This document shows, one piece after another, positions 57,887 through 62,467 of a stretch of 64,000 nt of DNA. A program made the translations under genes and the position numbers. How positions within the stretch are numbered: position 1 is the stretch's first letter; every line of letters begins with the position of its first letter. Below the pieces are notes generated by a model, which did not search any database, was not told where the DNA came from, and saw nothing but the letters and a program-made list of their open reading frames with translations. The stretch lies in assembly GCF_003019035.1 (NCBI RefSeq), contig NZ_CP027447.1; one strand, written 5' to 3'. The stretch comes from Escherichia coli (GTDB taxonomy: Bacteria > Pseudomonadota > Gammaproteobacteria > Enterobacterales > Enterobacteriaceae).

Positions 57887-58492
57887 ATGACGCTATACCA
57901 GATAAAACCGCTCTTTCAGTCGCTGTTAAGGCCGACGATGTTTTGGCTTAATAAGCACCATGTTACAGCGAATCACATCACTCTTGCTGCACTGGCGCTT
58001 TCTCTTCTTACCGGATTGCTGTTGATGTTGGTGGCACAACCCATCCTCTTTTTGCTATTGCCTATCGTGCTTTTTATCCGTATGGCGCTCAATGCGCTGG
58101 ATGGCATGATGGCGCGTGAGTGCAATCAGCAAACACGTCTTGGGGCGATTTTGAATGAAACTGGCGATGTTATTTCCGATATTGCGCTTTATTTACCGTT
58201 TTTATTTTTACCGGAAAGTAACGCATCACTCGTAATACTCATGTTATTTTGCACCATATTAACTGAGTTTTGCGGTTTACTCGCGCAGACGATTAACGGT
58301 ATTCGCAGTTATGCCGGTCCATTCGGCAAAAGCGATCGTGCGTTAATATTTGGGTTGTGGGGGCTGGCTGTTGCCATTTATCCACAGTGGATGCAATGGA
58401 ATAATCTTTTATGGAGCATTGCTTCAATTTTGCTTCTCTGGACTGCGATTAATCGTTGTCGAAGTGTGCTCCTGATGAGTGCTGAAAGATAA
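57887..58492 (+). CDS. ynbA: CDP-alcohol phosphatidyltransferase family inner-membrane protein
   Basis: 201 aa from MTLYQIKPLF; motif region NALDGMMARE...GAILNETGD (D-x2-DG-x2-AR...G-x3-D-x3-D). Confidence 0.85.
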   Translation: MTLYQIKPLFQSLLRPTMFWLNKHHVTANHITLAALALSLLTGLLLMLVAQPILFLLLPIVLFIRMALNALDGMMARECNQQTRLGAILNETGDVISDIALYLPFLFLPESNASLVILMLFCTILTEFCGLLAQTINGIRSYAGPFGKSDRALIFGLWGLAVAIYPQWMQWNNLLWSIASILLLWTAINRCRSVLLMSAER

Positions 58493-59388
58493 TGCTGGAA
58501 AAATCTCTGGCAACACTTTTCGCGTTGTTAATTTTAGCAACGCTGATAAACCGTTTTCTGATATGGCGGTTACCGGAGGGAAAAGGGGGTGAGGTTACAT
58601 TACGTATTCGTACCTGGTGGGGCATCGTCATTTGTTTTTCACTGGTGATTTCAGGTCCACGCTGGATGACGTTGACGTTTTTTGCGCTGATAAGTTTTCT
58701 GGCATTGAAAGAATATTGTACGCTTATATCCGTACATTTTCCGCGTTGGTTATATTGGGGTATTCCTCTTAACTATTTGCTTATTGGTTTTAATTGCTTT
58801 GAGCTGTTTCTGTTATTTATACCTTTGGCTGGGTTTCTGATATTAGCCACATGGCGAGTTTTAGTGGGTGACCCCTCCGGTTTTCTGCATACCGTGAGCG
58901 CCATTTTTTGTGGCTGGATAATGACCGTTTTCGCCTTGAGTCATGCCGCCTGGTTATTAATGTTGCCAACCACAAATATCCAGGGCGGGGCGTTACTGGT
59001 GTTATTTCTTTTGGCATTAACCGAGTCAAACGATATTGCACAGTATTTATGGGGAAAATCCTGCGGCAGAAGAAAAGTGGTCCCTAAAGTCAGCCCGGGA
59101 AAAACATTGGAAGGTCTGATGGGCGGCGTAATCACCACCATGATTGCGTCACTGATTATTGGACCGTTGCTGACACCGCTAGATACATTACAGGCATTAT
59201 TAGCGGGTTTGTTAATTGGTATTAGTGGTTTTTGCGGCGATGTAGTGATGTCAGCCATCAAACGAGATATTGGTGTTAAAGATAGTGGAAAACTATTACC
59301 AGGACATGGCGGACTCCTTGACAGGATTGACTCATTAATTTTCACCGCTCCGGTATTTTTTTATTTTATTCGCTACTGCTGTTACTGA
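58492..59388 (+). CDS. ynbB: phosphatidate cytidylyltransferase (CdsA) family membrane protein
   Basis: 298 aa; CTP-transferase signature region SAIKRDIGVKDSGKLLPGHGGLLDRIDS; start overlaps ynbA stop. Confidence 0.85.
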   Translation: MLEKSLATLFALLILATLINRFLIWRLPEGKGGEVTLRIRTWWGIVICFSLVISGPRWMTLTFFALISFLALKEYCTLISVHFPRWLYWGIPLNYLLIGFNCFELFLLFIPLAGFLILATWRVLVGDPSGFLHTVSAIFCGWIMTVFALSHAAWLLMLPTTNIQGGALLVLFLLALTESNDIAQYLWGKSCGRRKVVPKVSPGKTLEGLMGGVITTMIASLIIGPLLTPLDTLQALLAGLLIGISGFCGDVVMSAIKRDIGVKDSGKLLPGHGGLLDRIDSLIFTAPVFFYFIRYCCY

Positions 59389-59403
59389 AGGAAAACAGAG
59401 AAA

Positions 59404-61161
59404 ATGGAAAATTCACGCATCCCTGGGGAGCATTTTTTTACCACCAGTGATAATACAGCGTTGTTTTATCGGCACTGGCCCACTTTACTGCCAGGGGCGA
59501 AAAAGGTCATCGTCTTATTTCATCGCGGTCATGAACATTCTGGTCGTCTACAACATATCGTTGATGAACTGGCGATGCCAGATACTGCTTTTTATGCCTG
59601 GGATGCCCGAGGGCATGGACAAACTTCGGGGCCGCGTGGTTATAGTCCGTCTCTTGCGCGTTCAGTGCAGGATGTCGATGAATTTGTCCGTTTTGCTGCC
59701 AGCGGCAGCCAGGTCGGACTGGAAGAGGTGGTTGTGATCGCGCAAAGCGTCGGCGCAGTGATGGTTGCTACATGGGTTCATGATTATGCGCCTGCTATTC
59801 GCGGGCTGGTGCTGGCTTCTCCGGCCTTTAAGGTTAAATTGTATGTGCCGCTGGCACGTCCTGCGCTGGCGTTATGGCATCGTCTGCGTGGTCTGTTTTT
59901 TATTAATTCCTATGTGAAAGGACGCTATTTGACCCACGATCGGCAACGGGTGGCGAGTTTCAATAATGATCCGCTGATCACACGGGCGATTGCCGTTAAT
60001 ATCTTGCTCGATCTTTATAAAACGTCTGAACGTATTGTTAGCGATGCGGCGGCGATTACGCTCCCCACGCAACTTCTGATATCAGGCGATGACTATGTGG
60101 TGCATCGTCAACCGCAGATTGATTTTTATCAGAGATTACGTAGCCCTCTGAAAGAGCTGCATCTGCTGCCAGGCTTTTATCACGACACGTTGGGTGAAGA
60201 GAACAGGGCGCAGGCATTTGAAAAAATGCAAAGCTTTATTAGTCGTTTATATGCTAACAAGTCACAAAAATTTGATTATCAGCATGAAGACTGCACAGGA
60301 CCATCAGCGGATCGATGGCGGCTACTTTCTGGTGGACCCGTGCCATTATCGCCGGTTGATTTGGCGTATCGCTTTATGCGTAAGGCGATGAAATTGTTCG
60401 GGGCGCACTCTGCGGGCCTGAATCTCGGAATGAGCACCGGCTTTGATTCAGGCAGTTCGCTGGATTATGTCTATCAAAATCAACCGCAAGGTAGTAACGC
60501 ATTCGGGCGTTTAGTCGACAAAATCTACCTGAACAGTGTTGGCTGGCGCGGTATTCGCCAGCGCAAAACCCATTTACAAATACTGATTAAACAAGCCGTT
60601 GCCGATCTCCACGCCAAAGGTTTAGCCGTCCGCGTGGTTGACATTGCCGCAGGGCATGGGCGCTATGTACTGGATGCGCTGGCAAACGAGCCTGCCGTAA
60701 GCGATATTTTGTTACGTGATTACAGCGAGTTAAATGTTGCACAGGGGCAAGAGATGATTGCTCAACGGGGAATGTCTGGGCGGGTGCGTTTTGAACAGGG
60801 CGATGCGTTTAACCCGGAGGAACTCAGCGCGTTAACTCCGCGGCCTACGCTGGCGATTGTCTCTGGCCTGTATGAGCTTTTTCCCGAAAATGAGCAGGTA
60901 AAAAACTCCCTCGCAGGTCTTGCCAATGCCATCGAACCGGGTGGCATTCTCATCTACACCGGGCAGCCGTGGCACCCACAACTGGAGCTGATTGCCGGGG
61001 TGTTAACCAGTCATAAAGATGGTAAACCGTGGGTAATGCGCGTGCGTTCGCAAGGGGAGATGGATTCGCTCGTGCATGATGCCGGATTCGATAAATGCAC
61101 ACAACGGATTGATGAATGGGGTATTTTTACGGTTTCGATGGCGGTGCGTCGTGATAACTGA
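59404..61161 (+). CDS. ynbC: bifunctional alpha/beta-hydrolase + SAM-dependent methyltransferase-like protein
   Basis: 585 aa; N-terminal hydrolase with nucleophile elbow-like AQSVG; C-terminal Rossmann methyltransferase-like region VVDIAAGHG. Confidence 0.8.
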
Positions 61162-62467
61162 ACGCCGGAACGTATTGCTACAAGGAGCTGGCTGGTTATT
61201 GTTGCTGGCCCCGTTTTTCTTCTTCACCTATGGATTTCTTAATCAGTTCACCGCGACTAAGGATCTTAACAACCATGATATCCCCAGTCAGGTATTCGGT
61301 TGGGAAACGGCGATCCCTTTTCTTCCCTGGACTATTTTGCCTTACTGGAGTCTGGATCTTTTATATGGATTTTCGCTGTTCGTTTGTAGCTCGACATTTG
61401 AGCAGCGCCGTCTGGTCCACCGGCTTATTCTGGCAACGGTAATGGCCTGCTGCGGTTTTTTTCTCTATCCGCTGAAGTTTAGTTTTATCCGTCCTGAAGT
61501 GAGTGGGGTGACAGGATGGTTATTTTCGCAACTTGAATTGTTTGATCTGCCTTATAACCAGTCTCCTTAGCTGCATATTATTCTCTGCTGGCTACTTTGG
61601 CGTCACTTTCGTCAGCATCTGGCTGTGAGGTGGCGTAAAGTCTGCGGCGGATGGTTTTTACTCATCGCCATTTCGACGCTAACGACCTGGCAGCATCATT
61701 TTATTGATGTCATCACAGGGCTGGCGGTAGGTATGTTAATTGACTGGATGGTGCCCGTAGACCGTCGTTGGAATTATCAGAAACCTGATCAACGTCGAAT
61801 CAAAATAGCACTGCCATATGTCGCAGGCGCGTGCTCGTGCATTGTGTTGATGGAGCTAATGATAATGCTTCAGTTATGGTGGTCAGTCTGGTTATGTTGG
61901 CCAGTATTATCGCTATTCATTATTGGCCGTGGGTACGGTGGGCTTGGCGCGATAACAACAGGTAAAGATAGTCAGGGGAAACTCCCGCCCGCCGTTTACT
62001 GGCTGACATTGCCATGGCGCATCGGGATGTGGCTGTCTATGCGTTGGTTTTGTCTTCGCCTTGAGCCAGTGAGCAAAATTACTGCTGGTGTTTATTTAGG
62101 GGCGTTTCCACAACATATTCCGGCACAGAATGCGGTTCTGGACGTCACCTTTGAATTCCCTCGCGGACGAGCCACAAAAGATCAACTCTATTTTTGTGTA
62201 CCGATGCTGGATCTGGTGGTTCCGGAAGAGGGGGAGCTCCGACAGGCCGTGGCGATGTTGGAAACATTACGCGAAGAGCAAGGCGGCGTTCTGGTCCATT
62301 GCGCGTTGGGATTATCGCGCAGTGCGCTGGTGGTGGCGGCATGGCTGTTATGTTACGGACATTGTAAAACCGTTGATGAAGCGATTAGTTATATTCGAGC
62401 CAGACGCTCGCGGATTGTGCTTAAGGAAGAGCACAAAGCGATGCTGAAATTATGGGAAAACAGGTAA
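61151..62467 (+). pseudogene. ynbD: PAP2 phosphatase + dual-specificity phosphatase fusion, interrupted by in-frame TAG
   Basis: single reading frame across both ORFs (61076..61570, 61625..62467) broken only by TAG at 61568-61570; C-terminal HCALGLSRS = CX5R phosphatase P-loop; true start uncertain (GTG 61151 or nearby TTG). Confidence 0.7.

Follow-up and report, generated by a model that had tools for sequence, protein, structure and literature searches.

The ynbABCD operon of Escherichia coli, an apparently reduced copy of a widespread lipid-enzyme gene cluster, is interrupted in ynbD in strain SCU-301

What does the ynbABCD operon of Escherichia coli make? The phospholipid pathways of this bacterium are usually taken as fully mapped, and for ynbABCD, a conserved lipid-enzyme cluster under purifying selection, we found no product described in the literature. 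We analyzed the operon in a 64,000-nucleotide stretch of E. coli DNA (the window), which matches E. coli SCU-301 (NZ_CP051751.1), isolated from the rectum of a healthy student, at 100% identity. An earlier interpretation made without database searches (the sequence-only reading) had described four tightly packed or overlapping genes at 57887-62467, reading like a self-contained lipid-headgroup route distinct from the housekeeping cdsA/pgsA/pssA pathway. The layout is exactly as it described: four co-directional genes on the plus strand fill this span, with one base shared between ynbA and ynbB (TAATG) and spacers of 15 and 13 bp before ynbC and ynbD. Our answer is a tentative one, to which we would give somewhat less than an even chance: ynbABCD would be a dedicated pathway that leads from CDP-diacylglycerol (CDP-DAG) to a phosphatidyl-X-phosphate lipid, which is then trimmed, and this pathway would be incomplete in SCU-301.

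To place the E. coli genes in a wider context, we looked at the distribution of the cluster across bacteria. An exhaustive search recovered 156 YnbA-like clusters (at the 50% identity level) with E<1e-30, and a YnbA-like gene is found in at least 593 species, counting one genome per species. These are spread over the Gamma-, Alpha- and Betaproteobacteria, Campylobacterota, Bacteroidota, Desulfobacterales and Calditrichia, together with one Thermoactinomycetaceae metagenome-assembled genome, and Pseudomonas, Rhizobium and Campylobacter are among the taxa that carry the cluster. We considered 80 non-E. coli loci overall, and neighboring genes were counted wherever 6 kb or more was available on each side of YnbA (59 loci). 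As the sequence-only reading had proposed to check, the gene set does cluster with YnbA: YnbB, a PlsC-type acyltransferase, YnbC and YnbD all lie beside it in 27 of the 59 loci, so that all five genes are present. YnbB and the acyltransferase alone accompany YnbA in 18 loci and YnbC and YnbD alone in eight, while one locus has YnbB, the acyltransferase and YnbC with no YnbD, three show the E. coli pattern of YnbB without the acyltransferase, and two have none of the partner genes. Throughout these loci the acyltransferase always occurs with YnbB and YnbD always occurs with YnbC, and the cluster is therefore best described as two sub-modules around YnbA.

The acyltransferase belongs to the lysophospholipid/1-acylglycerol-3-phosphate acyltransferase family, and in Hafnia, Citrobacter, Serratia (S. 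oryzae), Budvicia and Mangrovibacter it occupies the middle of the order A-B-acyltransferase-C-D. No homologue of it was found within the 64-kb window. The cluster also has a sixth gene, which encodes a membrane protein of about 133-156 amino acids (aa) that has no Pfam family and carries a WRLWLD / FDxxLF motif. This gene lies directly after YnbD in 13 Enterobacterales loci and between YnbD and the acyltransferase in at least 16 others, the groups being linked by reciprocal profile searches (E 1e-12 to 1e-6), and it was not found in E. coli. Two natural fusions tie YnbA functionally to YnbC and to the acyltransferase, since each joins the partners in a single chain: an 807-aa YnbA+YnbC protein (P0185), whose gene has YnbD-like, acyltransferase and YnbB-like genes after it, and a YnbA+acyltransferase protein (P0188). 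The clustering across many phyla and these fusions bear out the view of one lipid unit distinct from cdsA/pgsA/pssA. To judge by gene content, however, E. coli ynbABCD is a reduced copy, with four of the six genes, of this widespread cluster, and the idea of a self-contained route does not survive: E. coli lacks two cluster genes, and ynbD is broken in this strain.

YnbA, which would catalyze the central step, belongs to the CDP-alcohol phosphatidyltransferase family by Pfam (PF01066 CDP-OH_P_transf, at 37.5 bits, with a cut-off of 22 and coverage of profile positions 3-148 of 152), which upholds the transferase assignment of the sequence-only reading. Its top NCBIfam matches are archaetidylinositol-phosphate and phosphatidylinositol phosphate (PIP) synthases (NF040950, 75.5 vs 180 bits; NF045883, 49.6 vs 170), and it scores 29 bits on the pgsA model, for which the cut-off is 109. 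The nearest solved relative is the Mycobacterium tuberculosis PIP synthase (MtPIPS) 6h53, with E 4e-8 from the single sequence and 9e-16 from the subfamily profile. The signature of CDP-alcohol transferases, D1xxD2GxxAR...GxxxD3xxxD4, comprises eight residues reported to be absolutely conserved, in which D1-D3 bind metal and D4 acts as the base (Clarke et al., PMC4634129). Aligned with 6h53, YnbA reads N69-A-L-D72-G-M-M-A-R ... G86-A-I-L-N90-E-T-G-D94. All of 11 orthologues, with identities as low as 67%, share the resulting Asn/Asn form, and so do 125 of 128 distant relatives with a readable motif. Across 63 diverse members of the subfamily D72, E91, D94, D98, T32, R151 and R190 are invariant, and N29 is nearly so. 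In terms of MtPIPS, D94 corresponds to the base D93, N29/T32 to the cytosine motif D31/T34, and R151 and R190 to R155 and R195, which bind the phosphate of inositol phosphate (PMC4634129). Because D94, N29/T32 and both arginines are conserved, the acceptor of YnbA is expected to be phosphorylated. We therefore infer from the residue pattern that YnbA is an active enzyme that uses a CDP-linked donor and a phosphorylated acceptor, not necessarily inositol phosphate, at an altered metal site.

YnbB matches CTP_transf_1 over its full length (233 bits, profile positions 2-263 of 264), falls below the CdsA equivalog (NF008635, 111 vs 385 bits, C-terminal half only), and synthesizes CDP-DAG in vitro (PMC7018664; PMC6362211). 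YnbC combines a Hydrolase_4 domain (PF12146, 230 bits, about aa 1-280) with a Methyltransf_20 domain (PF12147, 505 bits, about aa 281-585), and the two are fused in 45 of 47 homologues. The hydrolase is nearest to the M. tuberculosis monoacylglycerol lipase 6eic (E 2e-15), with human monoacylglycerol lipases also close, and the Ser-Asp-His triads align (AQSVG/GHSMG, the Asp of GDDY/TDDR, and YHD/YHE, YnbC given first). The methyltransferase domain, modeled with a mean predicted local distance difference test score (pLDDT) of 92.8, adopts a Rossmann-type fold with a glycine-rich S-adenosylmethionine (SAM) loop, and D133, A135 and G137 of the domain are invariant. More than 1,100 methyltransferase structures match it at E<=0.001; the best fold match is 3ocj, an uncharacterized Bordetella protein, followed by small-molecule O-, C- and N-methyltransferases, and there are no lipid-tail (cyclopropane-synthase-type) enzymes among the top 50 fold matches. 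A ynbC transposon insertion gave an indirect, strain-dependent polyphosphate stress phenotype, with possible polarity on ynbD (PMC2435150).

Among the membrane PAP2 proteins known in E. coli, YnbD has been counted as the fourth (PMC7413402). Domain scores were taken on the intact protein as well. The C-terminal dual-specificity phosphatase (DSP) domain is clear (DSPc, PF00782, 92-95 bits against a cut-off of 33.5), and its HCx5R(S/T) loop is intact (HCALGLSRS, residues 375-383), although in this strain it lies downstream of the stop. For the membrane domain, PAP2_3 and PAP2 give 21.1 and 16.1 bits even on intact YnbD, both under the cut-off of about 27, whereas the model (pLDDT 92) has the PAP2 helical-bundle fold. 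Thus the domain calls of the sequence-only reading stood by Pfam for YnbA, YnbB, YnbC and the DSP part of YnbD, while the PAP2 call is carried by the modeled fold and not by the sequence score. Compared with the canonical PAP2 motifs (C1 KxxxxxxRP, C2 PSGH, C3 SRxxxxxHxxxD), YnbD has PSLH at C2 with H134 invariant, keeps invariant H175 and D178 at C3 (HHxxD) without the C3 Arg, and has C1 reduced to R106-P107 with no conserved Lys. We take this pattern to be that of the sphingomyelin synthase (SMS) and inositol phosphorylceramide (IPC) synthase branch. The best fold matches, with about 190 residues aligned, are human SMSr (8ijq/8ijr), the yeast IPC synthase Aur1 (9ivc) and a further IPC synthase (9vj4); the margin between a transferase and a hydrolase branch is too small for these models to decide. 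Based on the predicted helices and the Lys/Arg distribution, all of the PAP2 motifs are predicted to be periplasmic and the DSP domain cytoplasmic, and the active sites of YnbD should therefore face both sides of the membrane. PAP2 and DSP domains are fused in all 41 of 41 YnbD homologues.

The sequence-only reading had overlooked a break in ynbD. Codon 132 is an in-frame TAG that arose by a C-to-A change from the TCG (Ser) present in the comparison strains TCM3e1 and SMS-3-5, and RefSeq annotates the gene as a pseudogene ('internal stop'). Ser132 is at least 90% conserved, and near-invariant within PSLH, while H134, two residues on, is invariant; because of the stop the product lacks H134, H175, D178 and the entire DSP domain. 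Among 5,426 complete E. coli genomes, the only exact match to a 61-mer centered on the stop is in SCU-301, and about 4,600 other E. coli genomes differ from this 61-mer by one base. Being a substitution outside any homopolymer, the TAG is unlikely to be an assembly artefact. Re-initiation was considered as a way around the amber codon and appears unlikely, as nothing resembling a Shine-Dalgarno sequence lies upstream of the 280-aa open reading frame (ORF) that starts at GTG 61625. The gene is thus a pseudogene here, and the operon of this strain is broken and unsuited as a wild-type reference.

How might the intact pathway run? In relatives, the PlsC-type acyltransferase lost from E. coli would presumably act with YnbB to supply a private pool of phosphatidate and CDP-DAG. 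YnbA, as a PIP-synthase-like enzyme, would then transfer the phosphatidyl group to a small phosphorylated acceptor, X-P, to yield phosphatidyl-X-phosphate. By analogy with the phosphatases of phosphatidylglycerol phosphate (PGP) and PIP, among them PTPMT1 of the DSP type, the cytoplasmic DSP of YnbD may strip the remaining phosphate; YnbC may methylate and/or deacylate the product; and the periplasm-facing PAP2-type domain, if the SMSr/Aur1 fold is a guide, could hydrolyze the head group or hand it to another envelope acceptor. In SCU-301 the amber codon would abolish both YnbD steps, leaving an unprocessed intermediate at most. The eight of 59 loci in which YnbA, YnbC and YnbD cluster without YnbB or the acyltransferase imply that housekeeping enzymes can probably supply CDP-DAG, and this may explain how E. 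coli gets by without the acyltransferase. The operon is dispensable in E. coli, as single ynbB and ynbD deletions grow normally (PMC6362211, PMC7413402) and 15% of genomes are without it.

The scheme can be compared with several known systems. In the route formed by a PIP synthase and a PIP phosphatase (M. tuberculosis PgsA1/Rv2612c, 6h53, 5d92; the Bacteroides inositol-lipid cluster), which includes the closest solved relatives of YnbA, the likeness extends to the base, the cytosine motif and the acceptor-phosphate arginines, and to a partner that carries a phosphatase, in keeping with a two-step logic. In contrast to that route, YnbA is far below the equivalog cut-offs, D1 and D3 are Asn, the equivalents of S132 and K135 are not conserved, and no inositol-phosphate synthase was found linked to ynb clusters in the 80 loci. 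The ynb phosphatase also differs in being a DSP fused to a PAP2-like domain, and the lipase-methyltransferase fusion and the dedicated CdsA paralogue with its acyltransferase have no counterpart in the phosphatidylinositol pathway. The housekeeping Kennedy pathway (PlsC, CdsA, PgsA, PgpA/B/C) has the same order of chemistry, acyltransferase to CDP-DAG synthase to a CDP-alcohol transferase that uses a phosphorylated acceptor to phosphatase, and mitochondrial PTPMT1, a DSP-type PGP phosphatase, is among the matches of the YnbD DSP domain (3rgo, E 0.005). However, YnbB fails to complement a cdsA deletion (PMC6362211) and is no substitute for CdsA in bulk lipid synthesis (PMC7018664), YnbD does not rescue a pgpA pgpB pgpC triple mutant (PMC7413402), and the ynb pathway is non-essential and variably present. 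With SMSr, Aur1, IPC synthase and LpxT, a PAP2 phosphotransferase, YnbD shares a His-His-Asp set without the C1 lysine and, by its predicted topology, a non-cytoplasmic active site.

Several observations weigh against a dedicated phosphatidyl-X-phosphate pathway. YnbA has only six of the eight signature residues, D1 being N69 and D3 being N90, which leaves room for a different chemistry or for an inactive protein. The inositol contacts S132 and K135 of MtPIPS are not preserved in YnbA, which has G130 and A133 in these positions. No recurrent acceptor-making enzyme emerged near the clusters from all-vs-all clustering of 781 flanking ORFs in the 80 loci; the recurring flanking ORFs were lineage-local neighbors and the small membrane protein, and nothing else. 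We know of no new lipid product reported by E. coli lipidomics. The roles given to YnbC and to the YnbD domains are analogies, and with two cluster genes gone the pathway in E. coli may no longer work or may have been rewired. Finally, plasmid-borne ynbD failed to complement for either undecaprenyl pyrophosphate (C55-PP) or PGP phosphatase activity, the kind of activity that PgpB and YbjG have, in the two temperature-sensitive strains used, and E. coli without all four PAP2 proteins is viable (PMC7413402).

Where the genes are present in E. coli, their dN/dS values are 0.06-0.08 for ynbA, 0.07-0.22 for ynbB, 0.18-0.22 for ynbC and 0.13-0.30 for ynbD, compared with about 0.03 for azoR and 0.02 for hrpA, so that selection is purifying yet relaxed 5-15 fold relative to neighboring genes, with ynbA under the tightest constraint of the four. 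The ynbD segment is missing from 822 of 5,426 complete E. coli genomes (15%), an unbroken stretch covering at least 80% of the region is present in only 4,275 genomes, and about 79-85% of E. coli genomes retain the operon. In strain 1446 (L004) pdxI directly abuts azoR, with ydbD and ynbABCD gone together; partial deletions of the locus also occur, and IS1 and IS3 insertions split ynbA in two genomes (H12, H54). Together ydbD and ynbABCD form one low-GC insertion/deletion block of about 7 kb (window 55410-62467). The sequence-only reading had called ynbA and ynbB AT-rich relative to their neighbors. This holds against the window (GC 44.6% and 43.4%, respectively, vs a mean of 50.2%), where the ynbAB pair falls in the lowest 6% of 1.5-kb windows, but not against ydbD, which is equally AT-rich (43.3%, with a GC at third codon positions, GC3, of 0.41); ynbC and ynbD are near the window average. 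Part of the bias in ynbAB is due to T-rich membrane-protein codons (T fraction 0.34). The horizontal origin that had been suggested is only weakly supported by a low-GC block that is polymorphic in E. coli. Given the orthologous clusters in many Enterobacterales, old residence with repeated loss fits at least as well as recent import. Between SCU-301 and TCM3e1 (L002) there is one difference over ydbD and ynbA (2.9 kb) and 32 in ynbB (0.9 kb), a pattern that implies a recombination mosaic with a breakpoint near the ynbA/ynbB junction.

The sole published biochemical role for a gene of the operon concerns the same ynbB, in the synthesis by CdsA or YnbB of N-acetylglucosamine-pyrophosphate-diacylglycerol (GlcNAc-PP-DAG), the first intermediate of the glycolipid membrane protein integrase (MPIase) studied by the Nishiyama laboratory. 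In the published model CdsA or YnbB carries out both steps, and YnbA, YnbC and YnbD are not involved. One could instead picture the operon as an auxiliary MPIase route, in which YnbB, possibly with YnbA, makes GlcNAc-PP-DAG from CDP-DAG and GlcNAc-1-phosphate, the phosphate acting as nucleophile with help from a less negative Asn/Asn site and two arginines, and the PAP2 domain of YnbD recycles diacylglycerol pyrophosphate. We consider this improbable, even though overproduced YnbB raises MPIase and, under CdsA depletion, restores MPIase and not bulk phospholipid, from which a back-up role was proposed (PMC6362211, PMC7018664), and ynbB and cdsA are both cold-induced (PMC11413397). The reaction of CDP-DAG with a sugar-1-phosphate to give PP-DAG and CMP is also formally of the CDP-alcohol-transferase type, ynbA overlaps ynbB, both phosphate-binding arginines are kept in YnbA, and we found no mention of ynbA in the MPIase literature. 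However, ynbB is dispensable, and its deletion leaves the MPIase level unchanged because CdsA alone is enough (PMC6362211). MPIase is reported to be essential, and yet 15% of E. coli are without the operon and this strain is without YnbD. The MPIase glycan resembles enterobacterial common antigen, an enterobacterial trait, whereas the cluster extends well outside the Enterobacterales to Pseudomonas, Rhizobium, Campylobacter and Bacteroidota, and it is hard to see what its methyltransferase, lipase and DSP domains would do in making MPIase. The operon is thus neither required for nor co-distributed with MPIase (absent from 822/5,426 E. coli, present far outside the Enterobacterales), and neither this distribution nor its dispensability is what one would expect for an essential glycolipid of enterobacteria. 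Bolder still, and in our estimation very unlikely, is the joint proposal that the Asn/Asn site defines a new catalytic class, in which a phosphate monoester attacks CDP-DAG to give X-PP-DAG (e.g. GlcNAc-PP-DAG), and that a two-faced YnbD would process X-PP-DAG at either face of the inner membrane and deliver the head group to an acceptor in the envelope. If true, the six-gene cluster would provide hundreds of species with a diacylglycerol-based carrier-lipid system parallel to undecaprenyl phosphate.

A more prosaic explanation, which we doubt, is that in E. coli the operon survives as an evolutionary remnant that today makes no biosynthetic product, poorly expressed and lost piecemeal, the SCU-301 amber being one more step. 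The missing acyltransferase and small membrane protein, the 822 of 5,426 genomes without the locus, the partial deletions and the IS1/IS3 insertions, the ynbD amber itself and the 5-15 fold relaxation of selection relative to neighbors would all be expected of a decaying locus, as would the lack of a growth phenotype in knockouts (PMC6362211, PMC7413402) and the need for BglJ-RcsB for expression (PMC3950696). Against decay, the dN/dS of 0.06-0.30 is far under 1, about 79-85% of genomes retain the operon, and the A+C+D clusters (8/59) suggest that housekeeping enzymes can supply CDP-DAG. Moreover, cold-induced ynbB helps growth in the cold (PMC11413397), and ynbD figured among the fitness genes of a systemic-infection screen in uropathogenic E. 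coli (PMC3855560). A loss of function confined to YnbA, leaving an inactive pseudo-enzyme that scaffolds or regulates YnbB or YnbC now that two metal aspartates are gone, seems quite unlikely. It is true that D1 and D3 are both Asn in a signature described as absolutely conserved, that a D-to-N change at D4 kills MtPIPS (PMC4634129), and that the Pfam score is low (37.5 bits). But the variant is itself conserved (125/128), with E91, D72, D94, D98, R151 and R190 invariant and the cytosine motif kept, which is the pattern of an active site and not of decay, and ynbA is the most constrained gene in the operon (dN/dS 0.06-0.08). Asn can, moreover, still ligate Mg2+. On balance we retain, with the caution expressed above, a dedicated CDP-DAG pathway to a trimmed phosphatidyl-X-phosphate lipid.

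The ynb genes, their family labels and the YnbB literature were already known. The description of the operon as uncharacterized was accurate in part: YnbB and YnbD have published work, while we found no defined operon product, no function for YnbA, YnbC or YnbD, and no literature that treats the four ynb genes as a unit. Nor did we find earlier descriptions of the six-gene ancestral unit with its two sub-modules, of the fusion proteins, of the conserved Asn/Asn YnbA subfamily with its acceptor-phosphate arginines, or of a transferase-like, two-faced YnbD. All of the parts come from known enzyme superfamilies and follow a Kennedy-type logic, and no new category of system is proposed. The analysis does lead to statements open to test: the acceptor should bear a phosphate, a conserved, non-canonical metal site is present in the transferase, and the phosphatase protein should be active at either side of the membrane. 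As the complete unit has six genes, Hafnia or Citrobacter versions are better suited to expression than that of E. coli. There is also a bearing on how the first MPIase intermediate is made, since ynbA, which overlaps ynbB, is unaddressed in the MPIase literature that we found. For this strain, with its broken operon, the meaning is more modest. The coordinates of the locus are collected in the table.

Table. Features of the ynbABCD locus (window coordinates) and examples of the sixth cluster gene (coordinates within each named locus)
Feature	Coordinates	Strand	Description
ydbD (DUF2773 bactofilin)	55410..57716	+	co-varying low-GC neighbor, outside the conserved cluster
ydbD-ynbA intergenic region	57717..57886	+	170 bp; presumed operon promoter/regulatory region
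ynbA	57887..58492	+	201-aa membrane protein of the CDP-alcohol phosphatidyltransferase family, variant subfamily
ynbB	58492..59388	+	298-aa CdsA paralogue, CDP-diacylglycerol synthase family
ynbB-ynbC spacer	59389..59403	+	15 bp; site of a PlsC-type acyltransferase gene (about 640 bp) in relatives
ynbC	59404..61161	+	585-aa fusion of alpha/beta hydrolase and class I SAM methyltransferase
ynbD pseudogene	61175..62467	+	PAP2-superfamily membrane domain and C-terminal dual-specificity phosphatase, amber-interrupted
ynbD TAG stop	61568..61570	+	replaces Ser132 (TCG) within PSLH, the PAP2 C2-type motif
Sixth cluster gene, examples	L008 15177-15581; L025 15157-15636; L047 13838-14290; L056 10540-10986		about 25 further loci

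The operon is flanked by ydbD upstream and by azoR and hrpA downstream. In the K-12 counterpart of the ydbD-ynbA gap, BglJ-RcsB activates a promoter from a site centered 65-68 bp upstream of the start (PMC3950696). A consensus scan for promoters and terminators gave counts no higher than the shuffle expectation, and for sigma-70 it turned up nothing convincing in this gap. ydbD was considered as a possible cluster member and rejected, as it has no homologue in any of the 80 foreign loci; in YSP8-1 (L090 711-3017) it has an internal stop. ORFs in cluster gaps at L077 (a YhcG nuclease) and L071 (DUF1287) were likewise set aside as one-offs. Some YnbA-YnbB-acyltransferase clusters carry a protein of about 195 aa after the acyltransferase (L006 4338-4922, L027, L045, L052, L073), with tblastn identities of 29-41% across the five loci and no Pfam or NCBIfam match.

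Elsewhere in the window, a 220-aa ORF on the plus strand (62452-63114) overlaps the end of ynbD and is antisense to azoR; it has no homologue among cluster neighbors and is probably spurious. The abgA-type M20 hydrolase gene of abgR-abgAB-abgT (window ~28397-29300, minus strand; record 2688064-2688967) carries the annotation of a frameshifted pseudogene. Between ydbL and pdxI (window ~48315-54278, plus strand) there is an intact autotransporter gene of 5,964 bp, and its K-12 counterpart, ydbA, is presumably disrupted by an insertion sequence. About 10 kb upstream of ynbABCD, at window ~44710-47862, lies the ydbH-ynbE-ydbL operon, whose YdbH product we take to be an AsmA-like envelope lipid-transport protein.

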